Shown piece after piece: positions 16,809 through 53,841 of a DNA stretch of 64,000 bases (within the stretch, counting starts at the first letter, position 1; each line of letters starts with the position of its first letter). Source of the DNA: Chromatiales bacterium (ex Bugula neritina AB1) (GTDB lineage Bacteria; Pseudomonadota; Gammaproteobacteria; Granulosicoccales; Granulosicoccaceae); NCBI GenBank assembly GCA_001730015.1, contig MDLA01000168.1:35741-99740 (forward strand). Direction: 5' to 3'. A model generated the notes under the pieces. That model searched no databases, was not told the origin of the DNA, and worked only from the letters and a program-made list of their open reading frames with translations. The position numbers and the translations under genes were made by a program.

Positions 16809-16880
16809 GCTTGCTTCGACCGTCATTCCCGGACAAACTCCTGGTCAAAGATTGAATCTATACCCTGCAGCAGATAATTC

Positions 16881-18694: not shown

Positions 18695-18735
18695 ACGGTA
18701 AACGTAAAAGACCGTGAAACAACTGCGGATACGCG

Positions 18736-19488
18736 CTAATAAGGAAACCGGTCTGGCACATACAAGCTTTCCATTTCCTTTTCAATCCACGCGCTGGCTT
18801 CCTGCAGCACTTCTTCCGCGTCTCTACCTGCTGTTTTAATCGGAGGACCGATTGAAATAGTTATTGTACCCGGCCATTTAAGAAAACTGTGTCGCGGCCA
18901 GAACTCCCCGGCATTATGTGCCACCGGAAGTACCGGTGTACCGGTTTTGACAGCGATCACCGCACCGCCTTTTTTATAAGCAGGTGCTGCACCCAGAGCG
19001 GTTCGTGTACCTTCGGGAAAAATAGTAATTGAAAAACCGTTTGCTACCTTTTTGCGTGCCTGGTCGATCAATTGCGCCATTACCCGTCGGCCTGCTGATC
19101 GATTGATATAAATGTAGTCGAGCGCGGCAAACGCCCAGCCGAAACAGGGGATCCAGAGGAGTTCGCGCTTTGCTACGTAAACCGAATGGGGGAAAAACAG
19201 TTTCAAGGCAAACGTTTCCCAGGTCGATTGATGCTTGGCAAAGATTATTGCAGGCTCTAAGGCCGCATGCTCCCCGCCCTTAACCTCATAGTCCATTTTG
19301 CAGGTAACCTTCAGCCACCAGATTATAAATCGCACCCAGAGATTCACAATGTCGTAGCGTTTGCGCAAAGGCAGCACCACCGATAACAATACCGGCAACC
19401 AGTAAACCCCTATTGACAACGCAAAAACAATCCAGAACAACAACGAACGCAGGTACAGCACCGGGCGTGGCGGTAGTGTGTTTGTCAT
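18736..19488 (-). CDS. plsC: 1-acyl-sn-glycerol-3-phosphate (lysophospholipid) acyltransferase
   Basis: FAKHQSTWETF (the HX4E/D acyltransferase block) and FPEGTR are present. Its position next to gmhB-glyS-glyQ matches Pseudomonas. ATG 19488 is preferred over the GTG at 19542. Confidence 0.8.
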   Translation of the reverse strand: MTNTLPPRPVLYLRSLLFWIVFALSIGVYWLPVLLSVVLPLRKRYDIVNLWVRFIIWWLKVTCKMDYEVKGGEHAALEPAIIFAKHQSTWETFALKLFFPHSVYVAKRELLWIPCFGWAFAALDYIYINRSAGRRVMAQLIDQARKKVANGFSITIFPEGTRTALGAAPAYKKGGAVIAVKTGTPVLPVAHNAGEFWPRHSFLKWPGTITISIGPPIKTAGRDAEEVLQEASAWIEKEMESLYVPDRFPY

Positions 19489-19794
19489 TGGGTCACTTAA
19501 GGGAACTTTGGAAGTGTCTAATATTTTCAAGAGCCTGATCACATGACAAACGCATCTGGTTTCTACGGCAACGGTTCAACTGCAATGCCCGGTTTTGTTT
19601 CTGCTCGAAAGCGGAGCACAGGTATCGGAAGGTTTACCAGCGTAAAACGTTATGAGGTTTCAGTTTGTCGCAGAGAAATGTAATTGAGAAATGCAATAGT
19701 TTGCGAAACTATAAGCTAAAAACGATGGCAGAAGGATCAAAGGTCTCCTGAGCTTTCGTGTTGGTATAAGTGCATGACTCAATCAGTTTGTTTT

Positions 19795-20337
19795 TCAATC
19801 GCTGTCAGCCAGCAGTTCATCGACGAACGACGCCAGATCGTCATGTACCTCAATGTTCTCAAGGTGCCTGTTTTCCTCCAGCGTGCGGCTACCATGGCCG
19901 GTTCGAACCAGAACCGGTGTCGCTCCAACCACCATGGCAGACTGCACATCCCGCAGGGAATCACCAACTAGCGGTACTCCGGCAAGTTCGATATCCAGCC
20001 GCTGCATCACACTGTGCAACATACCAGGGCGGGGTTTCCGGCAATTGCAGTCGTCATCGGGTTTGTGCGGGCAAATAAACACAGCGTCAATGCGGCCGCC
20101 GCTTGCCGCCACCGCCTGATGCATGCGTTCATGAATGGCATGTAGTTCCTCAAGCGTTACCAGACCACGTGCGATTCCGCTTTGATTTGTTACCACCACA
20201 ACTCGATAGTCCGCCTGACACAATCGAGCGATAGCATCAATGCTGCCTTCTATCGGCAGCCATTCAGCTTCGGAACGGATATATCCATCCGATTCCTCGT
20301 TGATGACACCGTCTCTGTCAAGCAACACCAGTTTCAT
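19795..20337 (-). CDS. gmhB: D-glycero-beta-D-manno-heptose-1,7-bisphosphate 7-phosphatase
   Basis: The HAD motif LDRDGVIN, the Zn-binding CPHKPDDDCNCRKPRPGM and the block VGDSLRD are present. Confidence 0.9.
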   Translation of the reverse strand: MKLVLLDRDGVINEESDGYIRSEAEWLPIEGSIDAIARLCQADYRVVVVTNQSGIARGLVTLEELHAIHERMHQAVAASGGRIDAVFICPHKPDDDCNCRKPRPGMLHSVMQRLDIELAGVPLVGDSLRDVQSAMVVGATPVLVRTGHGSRTLEENRHLENIEVHDDLASFVDELLADSD

Positions 20338-20409
20338 CAGTTAGTCACACCTGCTCTGATCGTTCATCTCTGCCCAATTGATTCTATATTGCGCCCGCGC
20401 TGCTAAATA

Positions 20410-22485
20410 TCAGGATTGCAAACCACCCAATTCGGCAACATGCGAAAAGATTCCCCGCAGTTCAGACAGCACTGCCAGCCGGTTATCGCGAACCGCCGGG
20501 TCATCAGCCATCACCATAACCTCTTCAAAGTATACGTCAACCGGCTCCCTTAACGCGGCCAGTGATAACAATGCCCTGGTATAGTCGCCCGTCGCAAACA
20601 TCGGTTCTACCAGTGCCTTGCGTTCTAGTACCATCGCATGCAGCTTACGCTCGGTTTCATTTTCGAACAGCGCTTCATCAATTGGTGCTAAACTCGATAC
20701 CTTGTTTTTCTTTAAGATATTGGAAATACGCTTATTAGCTGCCGCCAGGCTTTGCGCCTCCGGCAGGTTAGAGAAGGCGACTACGGCCTTGATACGCTGA
20801 TCAAAATCGCTTGGAGATGTTGGCCGAACCGACGCTACTGCTTCAAATATCTGAGGGGTCACTCCCTGCGCACTGTAGTAGCCACGCAAGCGTTCGAGCA
20901 TGAAGTCAAACACTTCACTGACAACACTACCTGCATCTGCTTTGTCATTCAGACCATCGGCAGCCTGCTTCAACAGAACTTCCAGATCCAATTCAAGATC
21001 ACGTTCTATGAGCGTGCGCAAAACAGCCAATGCCAGCCGCCTTAAAGCAAACGGATCTTTTACTCCGGTCGGCTTCTGACCGATCGCAAAGATTCCCACC
21101 AGGGTATCAAGGCGATCAGCGATAGCCAGAGACTGGCCAACGCCGGTAGCGGGTAAATGATCGTCTGCATTACGCGGCAGATATTGCTCACTCAACGCAC
21201 GACTCACGGCCTCCGGTTCTTTTTCCAGTGTTGCGTAGTACTCACCCATGATTCCCTGAACCGAAGGGAACTCACCGACCATCTCGGTCATTAAATCGCA
21301 CTTCGACAATTCAGCAGCTCGTCTGATCGCCGCAGCATCAGCGCCTATCTGCGCGGCAATTGTACGTGCCAGATTGCCCACCCGCACGGTCTTATCGTAG
21401 ACACTGCCAAGCCGTGTTTGAAAAACAACATTTTTCAGCGCTTCAATATGGCTTTGCAACGGTTTTTTTCGATCCTGCTGCCAAAAGAACATGGCATCCG
21501 CCAGACGCGGTCGTATAACCACTTCGTTGCCTATGCGAACTTTATCGGGGTTGGTACTCTCGATATTCGATATGGTGATAAACAGCGGCATTAGCTTTTG
21601 CTCAGAATCGAACAAAGGAAAATACTTCTGGTTATCTTTCATGGTTGTGATCAGCACTTCAGAGGGTATATCGAGATATTTTGCTTCGAACTCACCTGCC
21701 ACTGGCACCGGCCATTCAACCAGCGCAGTTACTTCGTCGAGTAACGCTTCATCGACCAGTGCTTCACCATCCAGAGTTTTCGCAGTGGCTTCTATACCCT
21801 GTGCAATAATCTGGCGCCGCTCTTTGAAATCAGCGATAACCTTGCCCTGCTCTTTCAGAGCCGATCGGTAGAGTGACGGATTACCGATGGAAATCTCACC
21901 CGAGTGGTGAAACCGATGCCCGCGGGTGGTGCGGCCGGATTCCAGACCGAGCACAGTCGCCGGAACTACATTCTCTCCGAGCAACATCAGCAACCAATGC
22001 ACAGGCCTTACAAATTCTATATCGCTGTCACCCCAGCGCATACGTTTTGGAATCGGCAGTGCAGCAAGAGAGGCCGCAACGATATCTGGCAGCAGCTGCA
22101 CTGAGTCAGCACCCTCCTGCTCTATATTGCACACCAGCCATTCACCCTTGTCAGTCTTCATTCGATCAAGGTCGGCCACCTCCACGCCGCAAGAGCGAGC
22201 AAAGCCCATAGCAGCTTTACTAGGCTCACCTTTGTCATCAAAGGCGGCAGCTATTGCCGGCCCGCGTTTTTGCAGTTTGCTATCTGCCTGTCGCGTTGGC
22301 ACATCGGCAATTTGTACGGCCAGCCGCCGGGGCGAGGCGTAGACGTGCGTGTCTGCACCATCAATCTTCGCCTCCTGCAGTCCTTTGTTTATGCCTTCTG
22401 CGAATGCGCTAGCGAGTGTTTGCAAAGCCTTCGGCGGCAGCTCTTCAGTACCCAGCTCAACCAGGAAATCTGCTCGATCAGCCAT
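20410..22485 (-). CDS. glyS: glycine--tRNA ligase beta subunit
   Basis: DFLVELGTEELPPKAL and the RPRLADAMFFW region are conserved GlyS sequence. The start was set at ATG 22485 (MADRADFLVELG), immediately after the glyQ stop. Confidence 0.95.
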   Translation of the reverse strand: MADRADFLVELGTEELPPKALQTLASAFAEGINKGLQEAKIDGADTHVYASPRRLAVQIADVPTRQADSKLQKRGPAIAAAFDDKGEPSKAAMGFARSCGVEVADLDRMKTDKGEWLVCNIEQEGADSVQLLPDIVAASLAALPIPKRMRWGDSDIEFVRPVHWLLMLLGENVVPATVLGLESGRTTRGHRFHHSGEISIGNPSLYRSALKEQGKVIADFKERRQIIAQGIEATAKTLDGEALVDEALLDEVTALVEWPVPVAGEFEAKYLDIPSEVLITTMKDNQKYFPLFDSEQKLMPLFITISNIESTNPDKVRIGNEVVIRPRLADAMFFWQQDRKKPLQSHIEALKNVVFQTRLGSVYDKTVRVGNLARTIAAQIGADAAAIRRAAELSKCDLMTEMVGEFPSVQGIMGEYYATLEKEPEAVSRALSEQYLPRNADDHLPATGVGQSLAIADRLDTLVGIFAIGQKPTGVKDPFALRRLALAVLRTLIERDLELDLEVLLKQAADGLNDKADAGSVVSEVFDFMLERLRGYYSAQGVTPQIFEAVASVRPTSPSDFDQRIKAVVAFSNLPEAQSLAAANKRISNILKKNKVSSLAPIDEALFENETERKLHAMVLERKALVEPMFATGDYTRALLSLAALREPVDVYFEEVMVMADDPAVRDNRLAVLSELRGIFSHVAELGGLQS

Positions 22486-23701: not shown

Positions 23702-23717
23702 TGGCATACCAATTGCT
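23702..23717 (+). promoter_or_regulatory. sigma-54 (-24/-12) promoter of glnA
   Basis: TGGCATACCAATTGCT has GG and GC at the canonical spacing of TGGCAC-N5-TTGCW. It lies 85 bp upstream of the glnA ATG. Confidence 0.6.
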
Positions 23718-23801: not shown

Positions 23802-25211
23802 ATGAGCGCTAATGACGTTTTAAATATGATGAAGGAAAACGCAGTAACCTTCGTTGACTTTCGATTTACCGACACACGCGGTAAAGAACAGCACGTTTCC
23901 GTACCCAGCCATCAGGTAGAGGAAGATACCTTCGAAGAAGGCAAAATGTTCGATGGCTCTTCTATCGCCGGCTGGAAAGGTATCGATGCGTCCGACATGA
24001 TCCTGATGCCAGATGCATCTACTGCAGTACTTGATCCGTTCACCGAAGAAGCAACCCTCAATATTCGCTGCGATATCATTGAACCTGACACCATGCTGGG
24101 GTACGAGCGTGATCCGCGTTCCGTTGCGCGACGCGCCGAAGCCTACATGCAATCACAAAATATTGCCGATACCGCCTACTTCGGCCCAGAGCCTGAATTT
24201 TTCATCTTTGACGATGTGCGCTGGGGCACCGAAATGGGCAGCACCTATTTTCACATCGATTCCGAGGAAGCTGCCTGGAACACCGGGAAAGAAATACCCG
24301 GCGGCAATACTGGCCATCGGCCCGGCGTCAAGGGCGGCTACTTTCCAGTACCTCCGGTCGATTCACTGCACGATATTCGAGCAGAAATGTGTGTAGTCAT
24401 GGAGCAAATGGGTCTGACTGTCGAAGTGCATCACCACGAAGTTGGCACCGCTGGCCAGTGCGAAATAGGCACCCTGTTTAATACTCTGGTGAAACGCGCC
24501 GACGAAGTACAGATCCTCAAGTACGTGGTACAAAACGTTGCTCATTTACACGGCAAAACAGCGACATTTATGCCCAAGCCTCTCGTTGGCGATAACGGTA
24601 GCGGCATGCACGTGCATCAGTCACTTGCCAAAGGTGGCGAAAACCTGTTCGCCGGTGACGAATACGGCGGGTTGTCGGAAACCGCGCTTCACTACATTGG
24701 CGGCACTATCAAGCATGCCAAAGCAATCAACGCTTTTGCAAACGCCTCTACCAACAGCTACAAGCGATTAGTTCCAGGATTTGAAGCACCGGTAATGCTG
24801 GCTTACTCTGCCCGCAATCGCTCGGCTTCCGTGCGGATTCCGCATGTATCAAGCCCCAAGGCTCGACGAATCGAAGTACGGTTCCCTGACCCGACCGGCA
24901 ACCCGTACTTAACTTTCACCGCTTTGCTTATGGCCGGACTCGACGGAATAAAGAACAAAATTCATCCGGGCGATGCCATGGATAAAGATCTTTACGACCT
25001 GCCTCCTGAAGAAGCCAAACAGATTCCTCAAGTTGCACACTCTCTGGACCAGGCCCTCGACGCACTTGATTCTGATCGCGCTTTCCTGACCGCAGGCGGC
25101 GTTATGACCGACGATATGATCGATGCCTACATTGCGCTCAAGATGGAAGAAGTCACCCGCCTGCGCATGGCGACTCATCCGGTGGAGTTTGACCAGTACT
25201 ACAGCCTCTAG
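23802..25211 (+). CDS. glnA: type I glutamine synthetase
   Basis: The protein is 469 aa. [26 protein letters not shown] and the adenylylation-site region [11 protein letters not shown] are present. Confidence 0.97.
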
Positions 25212-27349: not shown

Positions 27350-28753
27350 ATGACACGCAACTGCGTATGGATCGTTGACGACGACCAGTCTATACGCTGG
27401 GTATTGCAACGAGCCTTTCAGCAGGCCGAAATTAGCGTAGACAGTTTCGAAAGTGCTGAAGCTGCGTTCGACGCGCTGCAAAGGCACGCACGAGCACCAG
27501 ATGCAATTGTCAGTGATGTCCGCATGAGCGGCATGAGCGGCCTTGAGCTGCTAACCGCACTGCGCGAAACCGGACAGTCTGCTCCACCGGTAATTATCAT
27601 CACCGCACATGCCGATCTTGACACGGCTGTATCAGCCTATGAAGGTGGCGCATTCGAGTATGTACCCAAACCGTTTGACGTCGACGAAGTAATAGAGATT
27701 ACGCGACGCGCGTTCAGCAACACCACGCGCACAGCGAATCTAATTACAAGAGCACCGAAAGATCAATCCGGGTTGGTGGGTGAGTCTGCACCAATGCAAC
27801 AGCTATATCGCACTATCGGCAGACTCGCCAGATCTCACGCCACCGTTTTAATCAATGGTGAAACCGGCTCAGGCAAGGAATTGATCGCCAAAGCATTGCA
27901 TCAGCACAGCCCGAGATCGGAAGAACCATTCATCGCTTTAAATATGGCCGCTATCTCGCAAGATCTGATGGAAGCCGAATTATTCGGTCACGAAAAAGGC
28001 GCTTTTACCGGAGCTAACGAGCAACGAAAGGGACGATTTGAACAAGCAGACAATGGCACACTGTTTCTCGATGAAATCGGCGATATGCCTGCACAACTGC
28101 AAACTCGTCTATTGCGTGTACTTTCAGAGAACCAGTTCTTCCGGGTTGGAGGACGCACGGCAATTAGCGTCGATGTACGTATCATTGCCGCAACTCACCA
28201 GAACCTTGAAGCAATGGTAGAAAAAAACCTGTTCAGGGAAGACCTTTTCCACCGCCTTAACGTAATACGTATTAACGCTCCGGCGTTGCGTGAGCGACCC
28301 GCAGATATTCCTTTGCTACTGAAGTTTTTTCTGCATCGTGCAGCGGATGAACTGGGAAATATAGAAAAACTGGCCGCACCCGAGCTCATTCAACATCTGC
28401 AGCAACTCAGCTGGCCGGGGAATGTCCGGCAACTGGAAAACCTCGCTCGCTGGCTAACCGTGATGGCGGCCGGACAAGAGCTTCAGATTCACGATTTACC
28501 GCCGGACCTTGCTACCCCCCACAACAATCAAAACATCTCCGGCAGCTGGACGGATTCACTACAAACCTGGGTATTCAACGCTATACAGAACAAAGAACCC
28601 GAAATAGGTAAATTAGCGAGCGAAAAACTTGAAAAAATACTGATTGCCAGCGCCCTTCAGAGCACTGGCAACCGTAAACAGGAAGCGGCACTCATTCTCG
28701 GCTGGGGTCGAAATACACTAACCCGCAAGATGAAGGAGTACGGCATTAAATAG
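27350..28753 (+). CDS. glnG: sigma-54-dependent response regulator NtrC (NRI)
   Basis: It has a receiver domain (WIVDDDQSIRWVL...DVRMSGMSG), an AAA+ domain (GETGSGKELIAKALH, GAFTGA, LFLDEIGDM) and a C-terminal Fis-type HTH (EAALILGWGRNTLTRKMKEYGI). Confidence 0.95.
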   Translation: MTRNCVWIVDDDQSIRWVLQRAFQQAEISVDSFESAEAAFDALQRHARAPDAIVSDVRMSGMSGLELLTALRETGQSAPPVIIITAHADLDTAVSAYEGGAFEYVPKPFDVDEVIEITRRAFSNTTRTANLITRAPKDQSGLVGESAPMQQLYRTIGRLARSHATVLINGETGSGKELIAKALHQHSPRSEEPFIALNMAAISQDLMEAELFGHEKGAFTGANEQRKGRFEQADNGTLFLDEIGDMPAQLQTRLLRVLSENQFFRVGGRTAISVDVRIIAATHQNLEAMVEKNLFREDLFHRLNVIRINAPALRERPADIPLLLKFFLHRAADELGNIEKLAAPELIQHLQQLSWPGNVRQLENLARWLTVMAAGQELQIHDLPPDLATPHNNQNISGSWTDSLQTWVFNAIQNKEPEIGKLASEKLEKILIASALQSTGNRKQEAALILGWGRNTLTRKMKEYGIK

Positions 28754-28756
28754 ACG

Positions 28757-29410
28757 CTACAGCGGCAAGGTAAGTACACCGGCACAGTCGCCAATCTCGC
28801 CTACAACATTCCACTCATTTTCAGCTACACAATCACCATATTCGTCCCCGGCAAACGCTCGCAATCGACCTGTAACCGGACTGCCATCATCTATTTTCAG
28901 ATCCAGTTCATACAGCACCGCTACCGGAATACCCCCTCCAGTAGTCAGCTCATGAGCGGCTGCTGTTCGACCCGTGGCATTTAGTGAGTAGCCGATTTTA
29001 TAAAACCCATTGAACGGATTGCTCGGACAGGTAGCAACCGCGCAAGCGGTGTCTGCTCGACTGGCTACAGCCGCACCATCAAAGCTACCGCTGATAAAAC
29101 CCGCACTCGACAAATGCTGCCAGACAGCACCGGCTTCAGCTTCACTGTCAACAAGCGCATTTGCGTCGCCATTAGCACTACCAGCGGCAATATGAGTGGC
29201 GGCGGTGCCAAAATCTCCCGGCAACGAACGGTATCTGTCTTGAAATGAAATCCAGGCCGTCTCAATTCCGGTTAGATCATTAGCAATGCTTCTGACTCTT
29301 GCGCTGTTAATCATCGATTGCCCTTTCATCACACCACCGAGCAGAAGCCCGATGATCAACAAGACAATAGCGATTTCTATCAATGTAAAACCTTGCTGCT
29401 TTCTACTCAT
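28757..29410 (-). CDS. prepilin-type N-terminal cleavage/methylation protein (candidate major subunit of the local type IV filament module)
   Basis: MSRKQQG|FTLIEIAIVLLIIGLLLGG has Gly-1, Phe+1 and Glu+5. It has its own RBS (AAGAGG) after a 116-nt gap. Its stop lies 3 nt from the ntrC stop, and the two genes converge. Confidence 0.8.
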   Translation of the reverse strand: MSRKQQGFTLIEIAIVLLIIGLLLGGVMKGQSMINSARVRSIANDLTGIETAWISFQDRYRSLPGDFGTAATHIAAGSANGDANALVDSEAEAGAVWQHLSSAGFISGSFDGAAVASRADTACAVATCPSNPFNGFYKIGYSLNATGRTAAAHELTTGGGIPVAVLYELDLKIDDGSPVTGRLRAFAGDEYGDCVAENEWNVVGEIGDCAGVLTLPL

Positions 29411-29526
29411 TACTAATACCTCTTAACTACGTTGGTGAAATATATAATCAGCGGGGTGTAACCACTGATCACGTAAAATCCAGAGTTCGATCAAACATCG
29501 TGAACGGCTTCCGCACTTAAGCAGAC

Positions 29527-30225
29527 CTAAGGCAACACAGCAGCCTTTACGAGCTCCGTATAAAGAATATTCTCCGACAACCAAACAACAAGATCATCGT
29601 ATTGATCATCACCGGACGTATCAAAATCCCTGCTGACGAACCGGTTATCTGAGTCCCGGTTTTCAAGCTCATCGGCAGAACCGGTTGAACGCATCGCACC
29701 TTCTGAAACAAGTACTACAGGTATCTGGTTGGCACGGAGCTGCCGACAGGAAGTTGATTCATCGCAAATTTCAAACTGAGGGGCCAGAAACTGCAACCCT
29801 ACATCAGCCATCTCGCCAGCTGTTGTAAAGTCCGGCACACCATCGCCATCAGCATCTGCGCCACTCACACTGTATTTGAGCGGTACGCCCCAGGCATCGA
29901 GCAGCAAGCCATCACTGTTATAACGCCCTGAGACTCCGAGCAACGCTGCGGGCACAAACCCATGCTCGAGCGTGCAATCACCTTCGGGCTGGTCGCCTGT
30001 GATAACCGGACACGGAAGCCGATGACGCGTAATAGCAAAGCCTAATAGTGCATCACGAATGTCATAGAGTTGTGCTACCGATGCTTTTCTTTTTTTCTCT
30101 ATGAAGCTCGCGCCGAACGGTTCCAGCACAGAACCCAGTAGCGCGCCCATGATTACCAATACCATAGCTATCTCCAGCAAGCTAAACCCCTGCTGGCGAT
30201 CGCGGAATACCTTTGAAACCGCCAT
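29527..30225 (-). CDS. prepilin-type N-terminal cleavage/methylation protein (minor pilin-like)
   Basis: MAVSKVFRDRQQG|FSLLEIAMVLVIMGALLG is a class III signal with Glu+5. Its ATG overlaps the upstream stop as TAATG. Confidence 0.8.
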   Translation of the reverse strand: MAVSKVFRDRQQGFSLLEIAMVLVIMGALLGSVLEPFGASFIEKKRKASVAQLYDIRDALLGFAITRHRLPCPVITGDQPEGDCTLEHGFVPAALLGVSGRYNSDGLLLDAWGVPLKYSVSGADADGDGVPDFTTAGEMADVGLQFLAPQFEICDESTSCRQLRANQIPVVLVSEGAMRSTGSADELENRDSDNRFVSRDFDTSGDDQYDDLVVWLSENILYTELVKAAVLP

Positions 30226-31448
30226 TACTCGATCACCAGAAACTGATCATTCGACAGCTCAGACAACCGCGGAAAAGAATAAGCAGAATCTCCGTCGAGC
30301 AGACTTTCAGAATCAAGGTAATGTACCAACGCACCTGGATCATTACTTCTTTCCTGCATTGAACCGGACGGTATAGTTACAATAGGAGCGCCAGCACTGA
30401 CCAGCAATACCTCTACCGGGTTACCTTCAACTGTTAGAGCATGTGGCGGATCATTTACACCGTCACATAGACCAGGGGCGGCTCCGCCAACACAGTGCTC
30501 GTCAACCCGATAATATATAAACGATGGCCAGTCTGATGTTGCAAACCAGATTTCGTTCAGCAACCGCGACCGCGGCACCACTGCACTGGAAAATTCGCCA
30601 AAAGCCAGTTCAACGCATGCACCTTGCTGCATAGCCAGCGCACCACTAAGCAAACCAGACTGGCAATCACCCGACTCATCTCCGAACATTGCAGCATAGG
30701 GATAAAACCCGAACTCGCGCTTGTATTCTATTAACCAGTCTCTGGCATATCCTAAAACACGCCGCTCAATCAACGGCATTATTTCCGACCTCCTGATTGG
30801 CAGCACCTGATCATTACCCGCGTGCCCGCTGAAAACGGTATCGCCATCGGCGTTTTCCGCTTCAAGGTAATTTACGACTGACACGGGAATTGTTGCCCTG
30901 TCCTGCTGATTCACCGGATTACCCGGGGCGATGAGAACGGCAACAATATCATCAATCGCATCGACAGCAAGAAGCTGATCTGTTGATGTCGAATTCAGCT
31001 GATTAAAAGACGGGTTGTAGCGATGCTCGGACGATACCGCATACCAGAAGTCGCGACCTAGAAATCGCTCCAGATAATCTATCTCGATTCGCTTACCTGA
31101 TCTATTCCAGACTGTCGGCAGATAGCCAATTGAATTACCACTACAACTTAAACCCGGAGAACCGTGTCTGGTTCGCGACGGACAGGGCAATCGCCCGACA
31201 CCACCCCTGATATTATGCCCGTAGTGATCAACATAGTTTACCGAGTAAGCAATCAATGCCGCTTTGGCAGCAGCCATCGCCCGCGCCTGCTCCTTATTTT
31301 GCTCGATCCCATTACCACGTGAGTTTCCCGAACCCATGAGAAATAGAGCCGTTCCACCGAGCAGCGCCATCATCAACACAAGCAATACCACTCCGGACTG
31401 ACAATTACCTGATGGTCGGGTAAATTGCTGCCGCGGAGAGGGCTTCAC
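30225..31448 (-). CDS. large pilin-like protein without Glu5 (GspK/PilX-like by position and N-terminus; inferred)
   Basis: The 407-aa protein has the N-terminus ...NCQSGVVLLVLMMALLGGTALFLMG, a hydrophobic pilin-like helix with no FTLIE motif. Its GTG start overlaps the upstream stop as GTGA. Confidence 0.5.
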   Translation of the reverse strand: MKPSPRQQFTRPSGNCQSGVVLLVLMMALLGGTALFLMGSGNSRGNGIEQNKEQARAMAAAKAALIAYSVNYVDHYGHNIRGGVGRLPCPSRTRHGSPGLSCSGNSIGYLPTVWNRSGKRIEIDYLERFLGRDFWYAVSSEHRYNPSFNQLNSTSTDQLLAVDAIDDIVAVLIAPGNPVNQQDRATIPVSVVNYLEAENADGDTVFSGHAGNDQVLPIRRSEIMPLIERRVLGYARDWLIEYKREFGFYPYAAMFGDESGDCQSGLLSGALAMQQGACVELAFGEFSSAVVPRSRLLNEIWFATSDWPSFIYYRVDEHCVGGAAPGLCDGVNDPPHALTVEGNPVEVLLVSAGAPIVTIPSGSMQERSNDPGALVHYLDSESLLDGDSAYSFPRLSELSNDQFLVIE

Positions 31449-31939
31449 TGATCCGACCCCGAGTGCTGCACATTCATGGTGAAGGATCCACCGGGAGATA
31501 CACGGTATGAGCCACCGGAACCTTGAAATACAGCCGCACCATCAGTATCTGTCGAGTGTAATTCTATGGCGTTATCTTCACCGCTTATATAGCGCTTGCC
31601 GTCAACCCAGATGTATTTTTTGCCAGCTGTAAACACTATACCGTTATAGCGATATTCAACACGACTACTTCGAATCACCGGATCTTTGAGCGGTTTCCCA
31701 TCGGAATCAATAGTGACCACAGAAATATCAGCTACCGGTTTCACAGGCTCCACCAGTTTCCTTCTGGCTTCCCGAGCCAAATTTCGTTCTTCTGAAGACA
31801 TGAACAACCGACTATCACCGATCATTGGAATCGCATCACCAGCGTATACACTGGTTATAACAATGCAACTCGCGATAAGTAAAACGGTAAACAGGAAACC
31901 AGATATCACTGCCACCCGGCTTTTAACCACATTATTCAT
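31445..31939 (-). CDS. small exported protein / possible lipoprotein (PilP-like position; inferred)
   Basis: The 164-aa protein begins MNNVVKSRVAVISGFLFTVLLIASC, a lipobox-like IASC. Its ATG directly abuts the upstream stop as TAGATG. Confidence 0.5.
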   Translation of the reverse strand: MNNVVKSRVAVISGFLFTVLLIASCIVITSVYAGDAIPMIGDSRLFMSSEERNLAREARRKLVEPVKPVADISVVTIDSDGKPLKDPVIRSSRVEYRYNGIVFTAGKKYIWVDGKRYISGEDNAIELHSTDTDGAAVFQGSGGSYRVSPGGSFTMNVQHSGSDQ

Positions 31940-32614
31940 CTAGGAATTCACCGATTGCTTTTTGACTGGCAGCGTCACGATATACCAATGAATTTCACAG
32001 ATCGCACTGATATTCCATTGTGGATTTCCGGGTTCAGTTGTCGAATCAGCATTCGCATCTACCGGTGTACTGACCGGATCCAGCAAGTTCACCTTCAATT
32101 CGGAAACGATAAATGTCGCCTTCACGTTCTTATACAGTTTCTCAAAGAATTGGTATAAGTCTGCATCGTGCGTAAACGCAAGATTGAGATTTATACGGAC
32201 CAGACTAACGCTGGAATTATTTCCACCATCTCCGGCATTTGCTCTAATCAGATGACTATCACCTGGCGACAATAGCTCCACCGGCATCATTTCATATTCG
32301 ATATGAAAGTCACTCATTCCAGCATGAATTTCCTCGAAGGCATCAATCCATACCAGCCTATCGCCGGCTCCTATTTTTCCAGCGATTTTTAGTCGCTGAT
32401 AGTCGGACCAGTCATTTTCAAGAAAATCTACTTGTTTTATATCCCTGTCTACACGCAGCCCGGTCTCGCGAAGTAAGGACTTCGCCATACTATAGGATGC
32501 CATGGAGTCCTTAATCTGTATCCAGCAGAAGTACACGCCGACGCCAGCGATAGCAGCTGAAGCCAGGGTAAACAGCAATGCCTTACGGACCTGAGCACTA
32601 ATAGCCACGCTCAA
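31940..32614 (-). CDS. bitopic membrane protein (GspM/PilO-like position; inferred)
   Basis: The 224-aa protein has a single N-terminal TM segment (ALLFTLASAAIAGVGVYFCWI). Its start overlaps the upstream stop by 4 nt. Confidence 0.45.
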   Translation of the reverse strand: MSVAISAQVRKALLFTLASAAIAGVGVYFCWIQIKDSMASYSMAKSLLRETGLRVDRDIKQVDFLENDWSDYQRLKIAGKIGAGDRLVWIDAFEEIHAGMSDFHIEYEMMPVELLSPGDSHLIRANAGDGGNNSSVSLVRINLNLAFTHDADLYQFFEKLYKNVKATFIVSELKVNLLDPVSTPVDANADSTTEPGNPQWNISAICEIHWYIVTLPVKKQSVNS

Positions 32615-34131
32615 TTGCTCCCGACAATTGTAAGCTCGATCATAAAACGGGCATTGCCCGCAACTCCGTCAAACCCGTTACCCATAGTCACCCTGTTGCC
32701 GGAAAGGCTATAGGGCGATTCAAGCACTACCACCTGCTGATAAACGCCACTGTTACTCAAGCTCGAGACAAACCTCTGAAAGACTCCCAGGGCGGCAGAG
32801 ATTTCTTCACCATCTCCTTTCAATGACCCCGAGACTGTGACATGACCAGTCATAACAGTGTCACTACCTTGCGTTAACCCGGTTGCTGTCGGACTGGTCT
32901 GAACACTATTGCTACCATAGGGCTGTGTCCAGTTAATCGATTCAATTTTGACCATCGGGAACGGAGCAAGATCAGCTGCAAATGCCGACATGAAATGGAA
33001 CGGTGTGTAGCGAGCGTTCGCTTCGAGAATCCGCGCGATCCTCACCGACTCACGGACTGCATCCACCGGTTGATTTTCGACGTAGATTTTTCTGGATAAA
33101 CCAGTGTCTACTTTGCTTGAGATATTGCTGAATCGATTAGCCGAGTCAGCCAGAGCCTGGTACTCATGATTTATATGTGCAGTAGCTACGGTGGAAACAA
33201 CCGCCGACAACAATAGACAGATACCACTGGCATACAGCCCGTGAGTCACTCGCTTACGGAGGTAAAAGCGACGATGCTGCTTTTTCGAGAGATCAGCTTT
33301 GCGCGCCGGACGCCCCCTTAGCAGCGTTGCAAACAAACCATCTGCATAGGAAACCGGCAATAGTTTCGACAGATTTAATACACCAGCAGCCTGATCGAGA
33401 TCAAGCACGCGGGAGTGTTCGACCTGCCCGACAACCTGCTCGATCTGCTCTTTGGTAAAGTTACCAACTACAATCGTTTCGACTACCACATCGGGCATTC
33501 CTACCTGCCTAGCCAGATAAGACAGGGTTTGCTGAATTTCCTCAGTCAGTGTGTCTATCTTGTTGCCGGGAATGCTTACCCGACGACTGATCAAGGGCAA
33601 ATTGTCGTGATATGCACACAGCCTGTAATCTGACTGCGTTAACTGTATAGCGACAAGCTTATATACGGCGCTTACTCCCAGAGCCTCACACAGCCCGGAC
33701 CCAAGCAGCGACAATGAGCACACATTAGCGACTACCGTACGCGCCTCTCGCAAAACCTCAAACCACGATTCACACTCGCTGTTAGAGACGATTCCAGCAA
33801 CAGTAACATCCAGCTCACGCTTACCATTCTGCTTGTTCGCGCGTGTGCGAACACACGATAATTTACTTCCGGGAAAACTCCGCTGCTGCATACGCGCCAG
33901 AATACTACGCCGATCAGTGCCACGAACGAAAGGGATGGTTTTCCGATGAAGCTCTTCCTCTGTAAAATCAACTAACACGGTAAATACGGACAGACGCCGC
34001 TCATGGAGATACCGCGCCAGATTTTTCCGACCCCCAGGGCTATTATCAAATTGAACAGCCTGCCCGAAACCGTGCCGACCAACAGCATAAGCCCTGGCGG
34101 AGGCATTTTGCAGCATCAAGAGGTAGCGCAT
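32611..34131 (-). CDS. bitopic assembly protein (GspL or PilM-PilN fusion-like; inferred)
   Basis: ATG 34131 overlaps the platform-gene stop as TGATG. A cytoplasmic region of about 310 aa is followed by a TM segment (GLYASGICLLLSAVVSTVATAHI) and a periplasmic region of about 170 aa, which is GspL/PilMN topology. Confidence 0.5.
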   Translation of the reverse strand: MRYLLMLQNASARAYAVGRHGFGQAVQFDNSPGGRKNLARYLHERRLSVFTVLVDFTEEELHRKTIPFVRGTDRRSILARMQQRSFPGSKLSCVRTRANKQNGKRELDVTVAGIVSNSECESWFEVLREARTVVANVCSLSLLGSGLCEALGVSAVYKLVAIQLTQSDYRLCAYHDNLPLISRRVSIPGNKIDTLTEEIQQTLSYLARQVGMPDVVVETIVVGNFTKEQIEQVVGQVEHSRVLDLDQAAGVLNLSKLLPVSYADGLFATLLRGRPARKADLSKKQHRRFYLRKRVTHGLYASGICLLLSAVVSTVATAHINHEYQALADSANRFSNISSKVDTGLSRKIYVENQPVDAVRESVRIARILEANARYTPFHFMSAFAADLAPFPMVKIESINWTQPYGSNSVQTSPTATGLTQGSDTVMTGHVTVSGSLKGDGEEISAALGVFQRFVSSLSNSGVYQQVVVLESPYSLSGNRVTMGNGFDGVAGNARFMIELTIVGSN

Positions 34132-35339
34132 CAGAAGCCCCCTTGCATGCTGAAAACCATGTCGTAGATCGGGCCTATAACAGAAATTACCACCCACATC
34201 ATCACCATACCAACAACAACGATCATCAACGGGCCAATAGACTGTTCAAGCTTTTCTATAGATTCACGAGACTGGCGATCATAATAATAGGCGGCTTGCA
34301 AAAATGCCCTGTCCATGGCACCGGTCGACTCGCCGATTTTCACAACACGGGCCAGTGTCATCGGAAATACCTGCGAGCTCTCGAAACTTTCAAACACAGT
34401 CGCGCCATCAATAATTTTTTGCCTCACTTCCCGCAAAGCCAGTGCTATTACTTCATTCCCGACAACCTGTTCAGAGAGTTTCAGCGTATCTACCAGACCA
34501 ATTCCAGCGCCGTACATCAGTGAAGAACAACGGGCAAACCGTGCGAGCTTTATACGAAACAATACAGCCCCTAACAACGGCATTCGCAATAGCAGGCCAT
34601 GCCATAGTTCGAGAAAACTATAGCTTCGTGCCAGCGCAAACCGGATTGCGATAGACAGCAGGACGATGCAAAGCAGAATCCCCCACCAGAAGCCACTAAC
34701 GACAGCAGAGGTGGCAATCAGCGTCTGGGTATGCCATGGCAATTCAGCACCGGTGGAGGTGACGAATGACATCAGCCCGGGTACCAGCCAGGTCATAACA
34801 AAAACAATTACCACAACAAGCACCGCCGCGACAAATGCCGGATACATCATTACCCGCTGTATTCGTGAAAGCGTTTCATCCTGCCACTTTAATAGCAGCC
34901 CCAGGTCGGTTAATACCTCAACGAGCTTGCCGCTTTGCTCTCCAACCTCCAGCATACTGAGGTACATCTGTGGAAACGTTTTTGGATGCTGGCCACACGC
35001 TGCGGAAAACAATTGCCCGGCATCAACGGCCTCAACCAACTGTGATGCTATTGATTGCATATGCGGTTTGCCAGAAGAATCGCGGAATTCTTCGAGGGTT
35101 TCACGTAGCGGTACTCCAGCGCCCAGCAATTGCTCCAGATGAAAAGTGAAGTCAATTAATTCTTTACGTGAAAAGTTTTTATCGCCCGCAAACCTTGCCA
35201 ACAGAGGACGTCGGCAATTGATCAACTCAAGTCCCGCTTGCTTCAAACGGGTTTCCAGGTCATCAATATTTGCAGCAGCCAGTGCGCCGTGCTGAATAGC
35301 ACCGTTACCGTTAACTGCTCTGAATGAATAATACTGCAT
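34131..35339 (-). CDS. GspF/PilC-family inner-membrane platform protein
   Basis: The 402-aa protein has two T2SSF repeats. Recognisable blocks include LEQLLGAGVPL, SMLEVGEQSGKL, LMYGAGIGLVDTL and VKIGESTGAMD, with three TM segments. Confidence 0.9.
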   Translation of the reverse strand: MQYYSFRAVNGNGAIQHGALAAANIDDLETRLKQAGLELINCRRPLLARFAGDKNFSRKELIDFTFHLEQLLGAGVPLRETLEEFRDSSGKPHMQSIASQLVEAVDAGQLFSAACGQHPKTFPQMYLSMLEVGEQSGKLVEVLTDLGLLLKWQDETLSRIQRVMMYPAFVAAVLVVVIVFVMTWLVPGLMSFVTSTGAELPWHTQTLIATSAVVSGFWWGILLCIVLLSIAIRFALARSYSFLELWHGLLLRMPLLGAVLFRIKLARFARCSSLMYGAGIGLVDTLKLSEQVVGNEVIALALREVRQKIIDGATVFESFESSQVFPMTLARVVKIGESTGAMDRAFLQAAYYYDRQSRESIEKLEQSIGPLMIVVVGMVMMWVVISVIGPIYDMVFSMQGGF

Positions 35340-35395
35340 ACCACGAACTTCCGTTTACCGCTTACAACCCGACTGGCATCTAAACTTTAAATCAA

Positions 35396-37096
35396 TCACA
35401 AGACCTGATTTGTGATATCGATCACACGAGACACCTCTTCAAGCGAAGTAGCCCCTTCATTAACGCGCCTGACAGCATCATCGAGCAACGTTCTATAACC
35501 TTCTTCCCGTGCTGCCATCAACAGCTGCGATGGTGCTGCATTAGCCAGAATTAAATCTTCTAAAACCGGACTAATCCGAAGCACCTCCATTAGAGCCAGG
35601 CGACCGCGATAGCCCTGATGGTCGCATTGCTGGCATCCCTCTTCCTCATAAACATAAGCACTTAAAGCTGCAGCCAACCCGCTATAACGTTCATCTGGCA
35701 CTACCATTTTTCTACAGTTTTTACAGAGTTTTCTCACCAGCCTTTGCCCGACAACACCAACCAGATTCGCAGAGATCGAACTGCTATCCACTCCTAGATT
35801 GGCAAGCCTCTGCAATGCTCCGATCGCTGTGTTGGCATGCAGCGTGGAATACACCTGATGACCGGTCATTGAAGCCCGAACTGCCATCTCAGCGGTTTCT
35901 CCATCACGGATTTCACCCACTAGAATTACATCGGGATCCTGTCGCAATATAGCCCTTATGCCAGCAGCAAAATCGAGCTTCACCTTGCCGTTAACCGATG
36001 TTTGACGCATTAGAGGCACCGGATATTCAACAGGATCTTCCATCGTCATAATGTTCAGTCGCTCGTCGCTGATCTGATTAAGCATCGAGTACAGAGTGGT
36101 TGTTTTACCGCTACCTGTGGGACCGGTAACCAGTATCAGCCCTTCAGGGCACTTCATCATCAGATGCAGCGTGGACAATGGTTGCTGGCCCATATCCAGA
36201 TTCTGCAAGGGCACAATACCCTTATGGTGATCCAGAATTCTTAAAACGATGTTTTCACCATGGAGTGTCGGCAGAATGGACACTCGAAATTCTATAGGCG
36301 CATTAGCTACCGCATAAGATATCCGGCCATCCTGCGGTGCTCTGGTTTCTGCAATATTCAGCTCCGCCAGAACTTTCAAACGAACGGTAATCGCAGACCA
36401 GTAATCGATGTGAAGGCTCCGCACTTGCCGCATCACGCCATCGATCCGATAACGAATTCGTACAAAGCCGGCTTCTGGCTCAAAATGAATATCAGAGGCT
36501 GAACGCTTCACTGCGTCAGACAGAATTGCCTCGACCAGCCGAACCACGGGCTGGCTGTATTCTGATTCCGGAGCACCCAATGCTACGGCGATATCGGGTT
36601 CCGCAGCGGTTTCAATTTCGTGCAGAATGCCATCTATCGATAACTCAAAACCGTAGTACCGATCAATCGCCTGCAGCAGCCCGCTTTCAGTGGCTAATGC
36701 GGTTTTGAGCGTTGTGTCGGGGGCCAGGTGAGCCCGTAGTCGATCCCGGGCCTGCAGGTCAAACGGGTCGACCATAGCGACCAGCAGTATAGATTCAGCG
36801 CTATCGAGCGACACCGGCAACAACTTGTGCCGCCGCGCCAGATGCTCCGGAATCAACTCCAGGGCAGCTAGATCAGGCAATGCGTTGTCCAGATCAACTA
36901 CATGGCCACCGGTTGCTTCACTTTGAGCATCCCGCAACAGAGCTTCACTGACGAAACCCAGCTCCAGCAGAATTTTTTCGACCGGTTTATCGGTTTTCTT
37001 TGATTCCAACAGGCCAATCTGCAACTGATCAGCGCTGAGCAAACCATTTTGAACCAGCTCTTGAACAAGAGCGCTACTGCGTACAACAACTTCCAT
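35396..37096 (-). CDS. GspE/PilB-family type IV filament assembly ATPase
   Basis: It has an N-terminal T2SSE_N-type domain, Walker A GPTGSGKTTT, Walker B/Asp box DPDVILVGEIRD, a His box TGHQVYSTLH, and a tetracysteine CKNC...CQQC. ATG 37096 is preferred; TTG 37132 is possible. Confidence 0.9.
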   Translation of the reverse strand: MEVVVRSSALVQELVQNGLLSADQLQIGLLESKKTDKPVEKILLELGFVSEALLRDAQSEATGGHVVDLDNALPDLAALELIPEHLARRHKLLPVSLDSAESILLVAMVDPFDLQARDRLRAHLAPDTTLKTALATESGLLQAIDRYYGFELSIDGILHEIETAAEPDIAVALGAPESEYSQPVVRLVEAILSDAVKRSASDIHFEPEAGFVRIRYRIDGVMRQVRSLHIDYWSAITVRLKVLAELNIAETRAPQDGRISYAVANAPIEFRVSILPTLHGENIVLRILDHHKGIVPLQNLDMGQQPLSTLHLMMKCPEGLILVTGPTGSGKTTTLYSMLNQISDERLNIMTMEDPVEYPVPLMRQTSVNGKVKLDFAAGIRAILRQDPDVILVGEIRDGETAEMAVRASMTGHQVYSTLHANTAIGALQRLANLGVDSSSISANLVGVVGQRLVRKLCKNCRKMVVPDERYSGLAAALSAYVYEEEGCQQCDHQGYRGRLALMEVLRISPVLEDLILANAAPSQLLMAAREEGYRTLLDDAVRRVNEGATSLEEVSRVIDITNQVL

Positions 37097-37220
37097 GGAC
37101 AAACTATAGCGGAGAAAATTGTCACCGCGCAAAGTGTATTTTACGCTTCGCCTGATTAAATGCGTGACTTGAGAATCAGCTAGTTATCAACGGAATACAG
37201 GTTCGCTGTTTAAATACGCC

Positions 37221-38354
37221 CTACTTCAACGCATTTACTCTAGCCAGCAGTGTATTGGTATCGCTACCTAGAAAATTCACATGAGCCATTTTTCGACCCA
37301 GCCGAGCCTCTGCTTTACCATACACATGTAAATGGCAATCAGATTGATTACATAGATCTCGCCAGCTGAAATCACTGCGTAAAACGGTATCCCCCATAAT
37401 GTTCAGCATCACCGCCGGACTGTGCAGATCTATAGCGGCCGCTGGCAAACCACATAACGTTCTCACTTGCTGGTCGAACTGCGAGTACGAGGTTGCATCG
37501 AGCGAGAAGTGACCACTGTTGTGTGGTCGCGGTGCTATTTCGTTTAATAAAAGCTGCTCGCCGCAGACAAACATTTCCACAGCCAACACCCCGACGTAAT
37601 CAATCGCATCGGCAAGTAGCGTGGCTAATTCCAGTGCGCGGATTGAAATTAACTCACTAACACGTGCCGGCACCACGCAGGTATCGAGAATACCGTTGTG
37701 ATGATTATTTTCAATTAGCGGAAACGTTTCTACGCGACCGGATACATCACGTGCCAACACCACCGATACTTCTTTATCGAATGGAACAAAATCTTCGACG
37801 ATGCATTCAATAGAACCGAACTGCTCAAAGGATGCAATAGCTTCTGCAGCTGATTCACAGACACGCTGGCCTTTGCCATCGTAACCAAACCGGGTGGTTT
37901 TTATAACCGCCTTACCACTCATCTTAGAGAACGCTGATTCGATCTGCGTCACATTGGTAATTTCTTCAAATGCGTTGGTCGGCAGATTATGCTTCTGGAA
38001 AAAACGTTTTTCGCGTAAACGATTCTGAGCTATTTCCACCGCTGCCGGCCCCGGCGATACCACAATACTCTGTTCTACAAAACGCAGGCTATCAGCGGGT
38101 ACATTTTCGAACTCTGTGGTGACGGCATCACACAGCTCAACCAGTTTCGCAAGACCCGCCTGATCATCGTATGCATACTGAAGGTGAGTAGTGGCAACTT
38201 CTGCTGCCGGCCCCTGCTCAGCCGGATCAAGCACGACGACGCGATACCCCATTTGCGTTGCCGCGTGAGAGAACATGCGTCCTAATTGCCCGCCTCCCAG
38301 CACACCGAGAGTTGCACCCGGCAACAACGGGTTTCCATGCCGGCCCGTATTCAT
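37221..38354 (-). CDS. purK: 5-(carboxyamino)imidazole ribonucleotide synthase
   Basis: The ATP-grasp protein begins [12 protein letters not shown]. It lies directly downstream of purE, with an overlapping stop and start. Confidence 0.9.
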
Positions 38355-47075: not shown

Positions 47076-47515
47076 AGGATGAAGATTCCGTTTGAGTTAT
47101 TTAGTGATTCCGCCCGATTCAACGACCACCCGATTTACCGGAATCCGTGTCGGTAATATCAGCAATTGATAGTTAAAATCGCAGCAAAGTGCCGCCAATA
47201 TCTTTATCAGGAAACAATATGGCGTACGACTGATTACGTGGTAACAGCAGCAAGTAAACCGCCAATAATACCATTTGTGATGCAGTGCTGAAACTCTGGC
47301 CCCGGTATTCACATGGAATTTACACAAAATTGGCCGATTAAACGCATGAATTCAATCAAAAACTTGATTAATTGCTCATAGAGCACTATTTCTCACCACC
47401 ACCGCAATAAACACTCTCAGGCGTAGACAAGAATCTGCGATTTCGCTAAACTGGTGGTTTGGCTTTCTATAAGGTGTAATCGTACGTGAATGCTCGACCC
47501 GCGCGTAAAACATCA

Positions 47516-49398: not shown

Positions 49399-49487
49399 AT
49401 CAAATGAATTCTCGTTAAATTGACCAAATAATGTGATTCAAAATGACAAGACCTGTCAGATCACATGATGTATAATTAGTACCTCGT

Positions 49488-49813: not shown

Positions 49814-49849
49814 CATCTAATTTACCACCACTCAAACCTCTCCTAACAC
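49808..49849 (+). repeat. left direct repeat (attL-like), starting in the tRNA 3' end
   Basis: CCACCACATCTAATTTACCACCACTCAAACCTCTCCTAACAC recurs at 58443-58485. The two copies differ by two substitutions and one extra T. Confidence 0.8.
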
Positions 49850-53819: not shown

Positions 53820-53841
53820 TGCCTCATTCTGAAATACAAGT

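Follow-up and report, generated by a model that had tools for sequence, protein, structure and literature searches.

Is a type IV filament machine that is encoded without an outer-membrane secretin or a prepilin peptidase a system in its own right, or is it what remains of a larger one? The question is raised by eight consecutive, intact open reading frames (ORFs) on the minus strand of a 64-kb stretch of DNA from Chromatiales bacterium (ex Bugula neritina AB1) (contig MDLA01000168.1, positions 35,741 to 99,740). The eight ORFs occupy positions 28757-37132 of that stretch, between a convergent ntrC gene and a co-oriented purK gene. We refer to the whole 64-kb stretch as the window and to the eight genes by the working names E, F, M, O, P, K, p1, and p2, in their order of reading. 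An original prediction, made from the sequence alone, had described the block as a compact type IV filament module and had proposed that its architecture is new. Here we report that the eight genes encode an inner-membrane set of filament components, comprising a motor and a platform, one protein that resembles PilM and GspL, two envelope proteins, a pilin that resembles an initiator, and two prepilins, and that they belong to a reduced branch of a larger family. On balance, we favor the view that the module is a working, vertically inherited derivative of a widespread and unnamed filament system related to mannose-sensitive hemagglutinin (MSH) systems, using a prepilin peptidase and probably a secretin that are encoded elsewhere.

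A compact module of eight genes

All eight ORFs were recovered in our ORF map where they had been predicted. The first, E, encodes the assembly ATPase and extends over 35396-37132 (578 aa) when it is left open to a TTG codon at 37132. Judged from an N-terminal alignment with relatives, the start is most likely the ATG at 37093 (MEVVV...), giving a probable gene of 35396-37093 with 127 nt between its start and the upstream neighbor purK (37221-38354, minus strand). E matches Pfam T2SSE (1.5e-126) and MshEN (2.3e-16), and its translation contains the Walker A motif GPTGSGKTTT and a tetracysteine motif, CKNC...CQQC, both of which had been noted before. Its PDB sequence matches are PilB and GspE (about 1e-109 to 1e-101), and it stays below the cut-offs of both corresponding NCBIfam models (PilB, 486 bits against 676; GspE, 481 bits against 630). 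The inner-membrane platform is encoded by F (34131-35339, 402 aa), which matches Pfam T2SSF in two repeats (8e-44) and reaches 273.6 bits against an NCBIfam GspF cut-off of 424. Together with the prepilins p1 and p2, these genes provide the window with three hallmarks of the type IV filament superfamily: an assembly ATPase, a platform, and subunits with class III signal peptides.

The genes are tightly packed, and the description of the block as a compact eight-gene type IV filament module was borne out. From F to p1 every junction is overlapping or abutting, as had been claimed: F and M have base 34131 in common, M and O overlap at 32611-32614, O and P abut at 31940/31939, P and K overlap at 31445-31448, and K and p1 have base 30225 in common. 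The two remaining junctions have gaps, of 56 nt for E-F and of 116 nt for p1-p2, and p2 has its own ribosome-binding site, AAGAGG, after the second of these.

The search for missing components used a six-frame translation of the window, in which hidden Markov models (HMMs) built from the proteins of relatives detected no secretin, no AAA_22 protein, and no tetratricopeptide repeat (TPR) protein; E. coli GspD, GspO, and GspA gave no match when used as seeds. The window holds a single T2SSE-family ORF and no PilT-like, PilQ, or GspD-like ORF, and none of the module proteins matched GspC in Pfam or NCBIfam. Within the 64 kb that represent the host genome here, the original prediction was therefore correct that no secretin, prepilin peptidase, or retraction ATPase is encoded nearby. 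The missing peptidase is not distinctive, since MSH loci characteristically lack a prepilin peptidase of their own and rely on that of another system (PMC6668835).

Full-length relatives and a reduced sister clade

To place the module, 80 metagenomic loci were fetched with an alignment of K, together with several contigs found by exact protein look-up, and the ORFs within 10 kb on either side of each module were classified with iterated local HMMs. Outside the clade of the window, 23 loci had enough upstream DNA to be informative, and in 23 of 23 the gene order is (AAA_22)-secretin-TPR-E-F-M-O-P-K-pilin. The AAA_22 gene is lost to the contig end in some of these, and every longer locus that starts further downstream is likewise cut by the end of its contig. 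The secretin of one such relative, L044, exceeds the NCBIfam equivalog cut-off for MshL (TIGR02519; 263 against 250 bits), and that of L006 reaches 233 bits, while the AAA_22 protein is of the MshM/ExeA/PEP-CTERM-ATPase kind. HMMs of the relatives' secretin, AAA_22, TPR, E, and F proteins matched the MSHA genes of Aeromonas caviae at 5e-75, 3e-43, 5e-15, 3e-149, and 4e-85, respectively, and the order of the matched genes in that species is L-M-N-E-G.

MSH systems are encoded at a single locus and are defined by mshA, mshE, mshG, and mshL, together with mshM (TXSScan; Denise et al. 2019, PMC6668835). Two of these mandatory genes, mshL (secretin) and mshM (AAA_22), are absent from the window and present in the full-length relatives. 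A neighbor-joining tree was built from concatenated E and F sequences, with outgroups from E. coli (GspEF and HofBC) and Aeromonas (MshEG). The family forms a monophyletic group in this tree (100/100 bootstraps) and divides into a compact clade that contains the window (100/100) and a secretin-bearing clade (99/100). Aeromonas MshEG branches beside it as its sister in 87/100 bootstraps, although, at about 1.3-1.4 substitutions per site, the family is as distant from Aeromonas MshEG as from E. coli GspEF. Taken together, the matches to MSHA, the grouping with MshEG, and the definition of MSH systems indicate that the family is related to MSH systems and has assembly proteins and pilins of its own.

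The compact clade comprises six loci, namely the window, L001/L002, L003, L004, L088, and L089, each of which is limited to the eight genes. The module is flanked by purE-purK on one side and ntrC-ntrB-(DUF4124)-glnA on the other in four of these loci (the window, L004, L088, and L089). L001 and L002 come from the same organism, a Granulosicoccaceae metagenome-assembled genome (MAG); here ntrC again lies downstream and the upstream side is cut off, whereas L003 has other upstream neighbors. No secretin was found up to 10 kb away from the module in L003, L004, L088, or L089, and no prepilin peptidase was found in the flanks of these four relatives or in the window. Because both the MSHA outgroup and the full-length clade have secretin, AAA_22, and TPR genes adjoining E, the arrangement in the window clade is most simply explained by the loss of these three genes. 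The claim of a self-standing new architecture was thus not upheld: the window represents a reduced sister clade of a family that carries MshM-like, MshL-type secretin, and TPR genes upstream.

A second difference lies between the two pilin genes. The p1 protein is orthologous to the pilin adjacent to K in the full systems and p2 to their distal pilin (E values of 1e-26 to 1e-55), and in those systems the two genes are 1-8 kb apart (2-8 kb in most loci). The orthology of p2 with the distal pilin therefore implies an internal deletion between p1 and p2, amounting to some 5 kb of accessory genes.

Despite this reduction, all eight ORFs are intact across the compact clade. Identities to the window proteins are 21-54% for M, O, and P, 44-66% for K, 58-72% for E, and 67-81% for p2; dN is 0.13-0.69 and dS is saturated. 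These values indicate that all eight genes have been under purifying selection. The GC content of the block is flat at 0.49-0.50, and we rejected an origin from a mobile element, as the site is conserved in four loci even though K of the relatives at that site is only 44-49% identical to K of the window.

The ATPase also appears to have changed in the compact clade. Against the c-di-GMP motif model NF053729 (cut-off, 38 bits), ATPases of the full-length clade score 56.8-64.2 bits and Aeromonas MshE scores 76.2 bits, compared with 22.1-39.0 bits in the compact clade and 34.2 bits for E of the window, in which the MshEN domain itself is present. An alignment of the two motifs of the full-length clade, RLGxxLVxxGV...ALTEQ and HLGKILVRLGF, showed that the Arg and Gly are replaced in all six compact ATPases. 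We infer that the ATPase of the compact clade no longer binds c-di-GMP.

Several further observations were made on the related loci. In most full-length relatives an accessory block separates the pilin genes; in L005, an Ectothiorhodospiraceae MAG locus, it spans 12798-20583, and equivalents are present in L006, L010, L024, L035, and others. The block encodes a divergent HATPase_c protein (~560 aa), an ABC-2-type permease, a ~245-aa protein, a protein with an adenylate/guanylate-cyclase domain, and an ABC ATPase. In L004, a DDE transposase gene (DDE_Tnp_1; 3132-4190, minus strand) lies between purK and the ATPase gene. A scan of GTDB genomes with peptide patterns derived from K recovered one MAG only, the patterns being too specific.

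The proteins M, O, and P

The original prediction had left the middle proteins of the module unassigned, and M, O, P, and K indeed escape Pfam and NCBIfam: no credible match was obtained for any of them, the sole line being TarH for K (E value of 0.17; 12.3 bits against a cut-off of 25.2). It had added that the middle ORFs would lose their novelty if HMMs identified them as standard PilMNOP or GspLM proteins. By HMM none of them is such a protein; at the level of the fold, M is.

M (32611-34131, 506 aa) was modeled with AlphaFold2 from an 84-sequence alignment at a mean pLDDT of 89.0. The model has an alpha/beta domain over residues 1-280, a long helix over residues 284-349 that includes the membrane segment and a coiled coil, and then, on the periplasmic side, a second alpha/beta domain with elements over residues 356-504. 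A Foldseek search of the PDB matched it to PilM (5eoy, 5eou, 2ych, and 3jc8; E values of about 1e-10, with the best PilM match at 8e-11 and a probability of 1.0), to FtsA, and to the cytoplasmic domain of EpsL/GspL (1yf5 and 4pht; E values of 4e-8 to 1e-7, with TM-scores of 0.54-0.60 normalized to the target). The membrane and coiled-coil part gave a weak match to Myxococcus PilN (E value of 0.5), and 2 of the 84 family members weakly matched Pfam GspL_C. The model and these matches show that M joins a cytoplasmic PilM-like domain of the actin fold (ASKHA) to a part that resembles PilN and GspL, an arrangement also known from GspL and MshI. Here the earlier description of a bitopic protein with GspL/PilM-N architecture has been confirmed.

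The size of the M family depended strongly on the search. A word-indexed search returned three matches, including one close homologue (54% identity, encoded in L001) and one fragment, and by itself would have made M look like an orphan. An exhaustive HMMER search of 1.84 billion representatives at 50% clustering gave 1552 representatives at E ≤ 1e-3 and 1043 at E ≤ 1e-10, most of them ~500 aa long. One homologue, P0003, is a high-GC protein of 404 aa whose match is limited to the N-terminal 35% and whose C terminus is rich in Arg, Ser, and Pro and resembles a frameshifted translation. Exact-sequence look-ups of M of the window and of P0003 returned no contig, and P0003 accordingly has no locus.

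O (31940-32614, 224 aa) is bitopic: an N-terminal membrane helix leads into a periplasmic domain that contains a conserved Cys pair. Its position is kept in all related loci. It had no Pfam, NCBIfam, or PDB sequence match even when a 46-sequence profile was used, and a Pfam scan of the O family gave only noise. Its membrane helix and the region that follows align in register with the membrane helix and the start of the periplasmic part of M (hhalign E value of 0.0011, probability of 20%), which is the pattern expected of a PilN/PilO-type pair.

P (31445-31939, 164 aa) is an exported periplasmic protein. The original prediction had called it a lipobox protein, but this is not a feature of the family: only 5 of 62 members have anything like a lipobox, and the closest homologue lacks one. 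The usual arrangement in the family is an ordinary signal peptide and, at the mature N terminus, the conserved LGRLFTTPxER. P of the window has a signal peptide, the RLF..ER motif, and a beta-rich C-terminal domain. Residues that are nearly invariant across the family are retained in P of the window. A 62-sequence profile gave no significant family or PDB match; a weak colinear hhalign alignment was obtained with the homology region (HR) of E. coli GspC (E value of 0.047), and 2 of the 62 members weakly matched Pfam T2SSB.

Weak colinear alignments were also obtained by hhalign between M, O, and P and the single sequences of Aeromonas MshI, MshJ, and MshK (E values of 0.0025, 0.08, and 0.096, respectively). 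HMMs of M, O, and P gave no match to the same three Aeromonas proteins, hhalign against single sequences of E. coli GspM, HofO, GspL, and HofP gave no signal, and two-sequence profiles of M, O, P, and K found nothing meaningful in the PDB. From topology, gene order, and the weak alignments, O would be an analogue of PilO, GspM, and MshJ, and P would be a connector facing the secretin that resembles PilP and the HR domain of GspC or GspB.

K and the two prepilins

K (30225-31448, 407 aa) had been described as pilin-like at its N terminus but without Glu5, and this description stands. Its leader reads ...QSG/VVLLVLMM (the slash marks the leader boundary here and below), with no Glu5, and the form QxG/AALL is conserved in the family. 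The AlphaFold2 model (pLDDT of 89.9, pTM of 0.84) combines an N-terminal helix of 53 residues, of the kind that type IV pilins have, with a Cys-rich globular head, and the N terminus aligns with that of E. coli GspK over 21 residues (E value of 7e-4). The head had no Foldseek match in the PDB (best E value of 0.74) or in BFVD. Across the family, G19 and the cysteines Cys89 and Cys102 are conserved. We consider K a likely filament initiator or cap.

There are at least 173 homologues of K, and the few that carry a name in their source are called "hypothetical protein," apart from one that is called pseudopilin PulG. About 55 protein clusters of the family are 43-66% identical to K of the window. 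Lengths range from ~300 to ~1200 aa, with the first ~260 residues in common. An assignment of K to MshQ or PilY1 was considered and could not be made, as the long homologues (650-1129 aa) contain no Pfam or NCBIfam domains. A lone member of the family was observed in L090 (2351-3607), a Pseudomonadales MAG contig of 8 kb, with 30% identity over 96% of K of the window; this gene adjoins MazE/PemK and DUF899 genes, and no type IV filament genes lie upstream of it on the contig.

The two prepilins, p1 (29527-30225, 232 aa; QQG/FSLLEIAMV) and p2 (28757-29410, 217 aa; QQG/FTLIEIAIV), match Pfam N_methyl at 2e-5 and 5e-8, respectively, and both exceed the cut-offs of Pfam N_methyl and TIGR02532. The NCBIfam similarity of p1 is confined to the N-terminal part of GspG and GspH, and the corresponding matches of p2 fall below the cut-offs; for the GspG equivalog, the module reaches 26 bits against 89. 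With its 67-81% identity across the compact clade, p2 is the most conserved protein of the module, and its first 50 residues are nearly identical throughout. In our view p1 is probably a minor pilin, and p2, whose N-terminal segment resembles that of GspG, is probably the major subunit.

Flanks of the module and other features of the window

Downstream of the module, ntrC (27350-28753, plus strand), identified from its translation as a sigma-54 response regulator, converges on p2, and the two stop codons (p2, 28757-28759; ntrC, 28751-28753) are 3 nt apart. The original prediction was right about this distance. Its conclusion that no room is left for a terminator did not hold, as a consensus scan and RNA folding revealed a terminator-like hairpin of 17 pairs with a U-tract on the minus strand at 28642-28673, or 28632-28673 when taken at its widest, inside the 3' coding end of ntrC (fold of 28625-28760, -45.4 kcal/mol, z = -3.6). 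This hairpin is a candidate that can serve as the terminator of the minus-strand operon. In four relatives a small minus-strand gene of 130-141 aa with no Pfam match lies between the last pilin gene and ntrC (L001, 8178-8585; L004, 12752-13168; L088, 12740-13132; L089, 12775-13200), and the stops are so close in the window because this gene is absent there.

Scans for sigma-70 promoters gave counts at or below chance, and a search for sigma-54 promoters gave counts at chance level; among the matches listed for the latter, none falls in the gap between p1 and p2. A near-consensus sigma-54 element with one mismatch, TGGCATACCAATTGCT, was observed at 23702-23717 on the plus strand, ~85 nt upstream of glnA (23802-25211). 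As a predicted element, it fits the glnA-ntrBC context.

Two further features of the window lie apart from the module. A tRNA gene with the anticodon CAU at 49487-49830 (plus strand), 165 nt downstream of rpoD (47486-49348), is split into the halves GGGCCTGTAGCTCAGTTGGTTAGAGCAGTGGACTCAT (5') and AATCCATTGGTCGTAGGTTCAAATCCTACCGGGCCCACCA (3') by a group I intron in the anticodon loop (Rfam RF00028, 49513-49765, 83.6 bits), whereas ARAGORN reported no tRNA in the window. We take the intron to resemble the Azoarcus-type tRNA-Ile(CAU) intron. The GC content dips to 0.42 at 52000-54500, where ORFs 51671-52330 and 53052-53819 have no Pfam match and adjoin a gene for an FeeM-like N-acyl amino acid synthase (53842-54456); a Uma2-family endonuclease ORF is found at 50142-50726. 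The region at 52000-54500 may be a small acquired island.

Discussion

The loss of the secretin leaves the compact clade with two options, to borrow a secretin or to act within the periplasm. If, as we favor, the module is a working derivative of the MSH-related family, a prepilin peptidase encoded elsewhere would process p1, p2, and perhaps K, and E would dock with F and with the cytoplasmic part of M to polymerize p2 onto an initiation complex of K and p1. O and P would complete a periplasmic cradle, and the filament would exit, or cargo would be delivered, via a secretin encoded elsewhere, to which P would be the likely connector. Assembly would no longer be gated by c-di-GMP. The use of a peptidase and a secretin in trans is our inference from the missing genes.

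A number of points weigh against this interpretation. The partners in trans are assumed, and the genomic view consists of the 64-kb window and of 10 kb on either side of the module in relatives. The similarities of O and P to PilO/GspM/MshJ and PilP/GspC/MshK are not significant, with best E values of 1e-3 to 0.1 against single-sequence templates. The trees are neighbor-joining trees with only three outgroups, which are ~1.3 substitutions per site away. Moreover, the compact clade branches as the sister of the secretin-bearing clade, as sampled here, and is not nested within it, so that the loss rests on parsimony from the gene order of the outgroup and not on topology. Finally, the very high conservation of p2 would suit a non-exposed pseudopilus better than a surface pilus.

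This last point leads to the alternative that deserves the most attention, namely that the module builds a secretin-independent periplasmic filament, or endopilus. Such a filament would be a short GspG-like fiber capped by K and acting, for example, as a piston, scaffold, or sensor, and the secretin, its assembly factors, and c-di-GMP control would have been dropped because passage of the filament through the outer membrane had ceased. Several observations agree with this: no secretin, MshM-like, or TPR gene is present in the window or within 10 kb in L003, L004, L088, and L089; the secretin and its two presumed helper genes (AAA_22 and TPR) were lost together; no retraction ATPase is encoded in the window; and p2, with its GspG-like N-terminal segment, is unusually conserved for a pilin, as would suit a subunit that is not on the surface. 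Against it stands the retention of P, the candidate connector to the secretin, together with the residues that are conserved across its family. In Neisseria pilQ mutants, fibers with no way out become stuck in the periplasm, where they do harm if they are not retracted, which also counts against an endopilus. Borrowing a secretin would be a smaller step, since MSH systems already borrow PilD and PilT in trans (PMC6668835), and the host genome is seen here through 64 kb. We therefore consider a periplasmic filament doubtful, if worth pursuing. Its boldest form, a minimal secretin-free machine of motor, platform, and PilM/N/O/P-like cradle in diderm marine Gammaproteobacteria that makes a K-primed periplasmic fiber of the GspG-like subunit, with a novel fold in the head of K and uncoupled from c-di-GMP, strikes us as unlikely.

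It is highly improbable that the block is a decaying, functionless remnant of a once complete MSH-like locus. The mandatory mshL and mshM are missing and the c-di-GMP motifs are degenerate, as decay would predict, but none of the eight ORFs is broken in six genomes whose proteins diverge by 19-79%, their overlapping junctions have been kept, dN stays well short of the saturated dS, and about 55 clusters of the K family persist at 43-66% identity. A self-contained and categorically new type IV filament subtype, unrelated to the type II secretion system (T2SS), the type IVa pilus (T4aP), MSH, and Tad, could draw on the absence of Pfam and NCBIfam models for M, O, P, and K, the head of K without a fold match, and the scores of E and F below every equivalog cut-off, but we give it very little credence. 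For the most part it is already refuted by the full-length relatives: by synteny and homology, the same genes stand there beside a secretin of the MshL type, an ATPase like MshM, a TPR protein, and a c-di-GMP motif of the MshE type. The grouping of E and F with Aeromonas MshEG (87/100) and the PilM/GspL fold of M also speak against it.

The reduced derivative that we favor is, in effect, a natural reduction experiment, with the full MSH-like set in one clade and eight genes at a fixed site in its sister. If the secretin is borrowed, the known dependence of MSH systems on PilD and PilT in trans would extend to the outer-membrane pore. If none is needed, the module would be a rare secretin-independent type IV filament in a diderm; in a search of the literature we found no account of type IV filaments in diderms that do without a secretin. 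As far as its M, O, P, and K proteins are concerned, the wider family appears to be undescribed. Current resources miss all four, although M has over 1500 representatives at 50% clustering. Families built for these four proteins would improve the models used to detect type IV filaments.

Comparisons with known systems show which parts of the module are shared. With T2SS, the module shares a motor and platform of the GspE/GspF type, with near-equal scores of the motor for the GspE and PilB models, the GspL architecture of M, a GspG-like N-terminal segment in the pilins, a GspK-like leader without Glu5 in K, and a highly conserved major subunit. Unlike T2SS, the window lacks GspD, GspC, GspO, and the GspH/I/J set and misses every Gsp equivalog cut-off; its pilins are ~215 aa when mature compared with ~140 aa, and the head of K is unrelated to GspK by HMM. 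With the PilM-PilN-PilO-PilP proteins of T4aP, it shares the best structural match of M, which is PilM, the order M-(N)-O-P, and a resemblance of O to the C-terminal half of M that recalls that of PilO to PilN. It differs in having the PilM-like and PilN-like parts in one fused protein, in a P family that does not consist of lipoproteins, and in encoding no PilQ or PilT/PilU in the window; in addition, its assembly genes are contiguous with those for the ATPase, platform, and pilins, whereas T4aP has a separate pilMNOPQ operon.

The resemblance to the MSHA pilus system of Vibrio, Aeromonas, and Shewanella (mshH-Q) extends to the MshEN N-terminal domain of the ATPase, to a single locus without a prepilin peptidase, and to the sizes (506, 224, and 164 aa) and order of M, O, and P, which recall MshI, MshJ, and MshK; the full-length relatives add the MshL-type secretin, the MshM-like AAA_22 protein, and an MshN-like TPR protein beside mshE-like and mshG-like genes. 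In contrast to MSHA, the clade of the window lacks mshL, mshM, and mshN, the c-di-GMP motifs of the compact clade are degenerate, and the assembly genes come after the mshG-like gene, whereas those of MSHA come before mshL. M is one fused protein, K forms a family of its own, and the window has three pilin-like genes compared with seven or more in MSHA (mshB, A, C, D, O, P, and Q). From its full-length relatives (e.g., L044, L006, and L005), the module differs by their upstream AAA_22, secretin, and TPR genes, their intact c-di-GMP motifs, their often longer K (550-1200 aa), and the 1-8 kb of accessory genes (HATPase_c, ABC-2 permease, and cyclase) that mostly separate p1 from p2. It shares with them the same E-F-M-O-P-K-p1 series, the presence of p2, and, in L044, L059, and L070, versions of K of ~400 aa, and all eight of its proteins are homologous to theirs.

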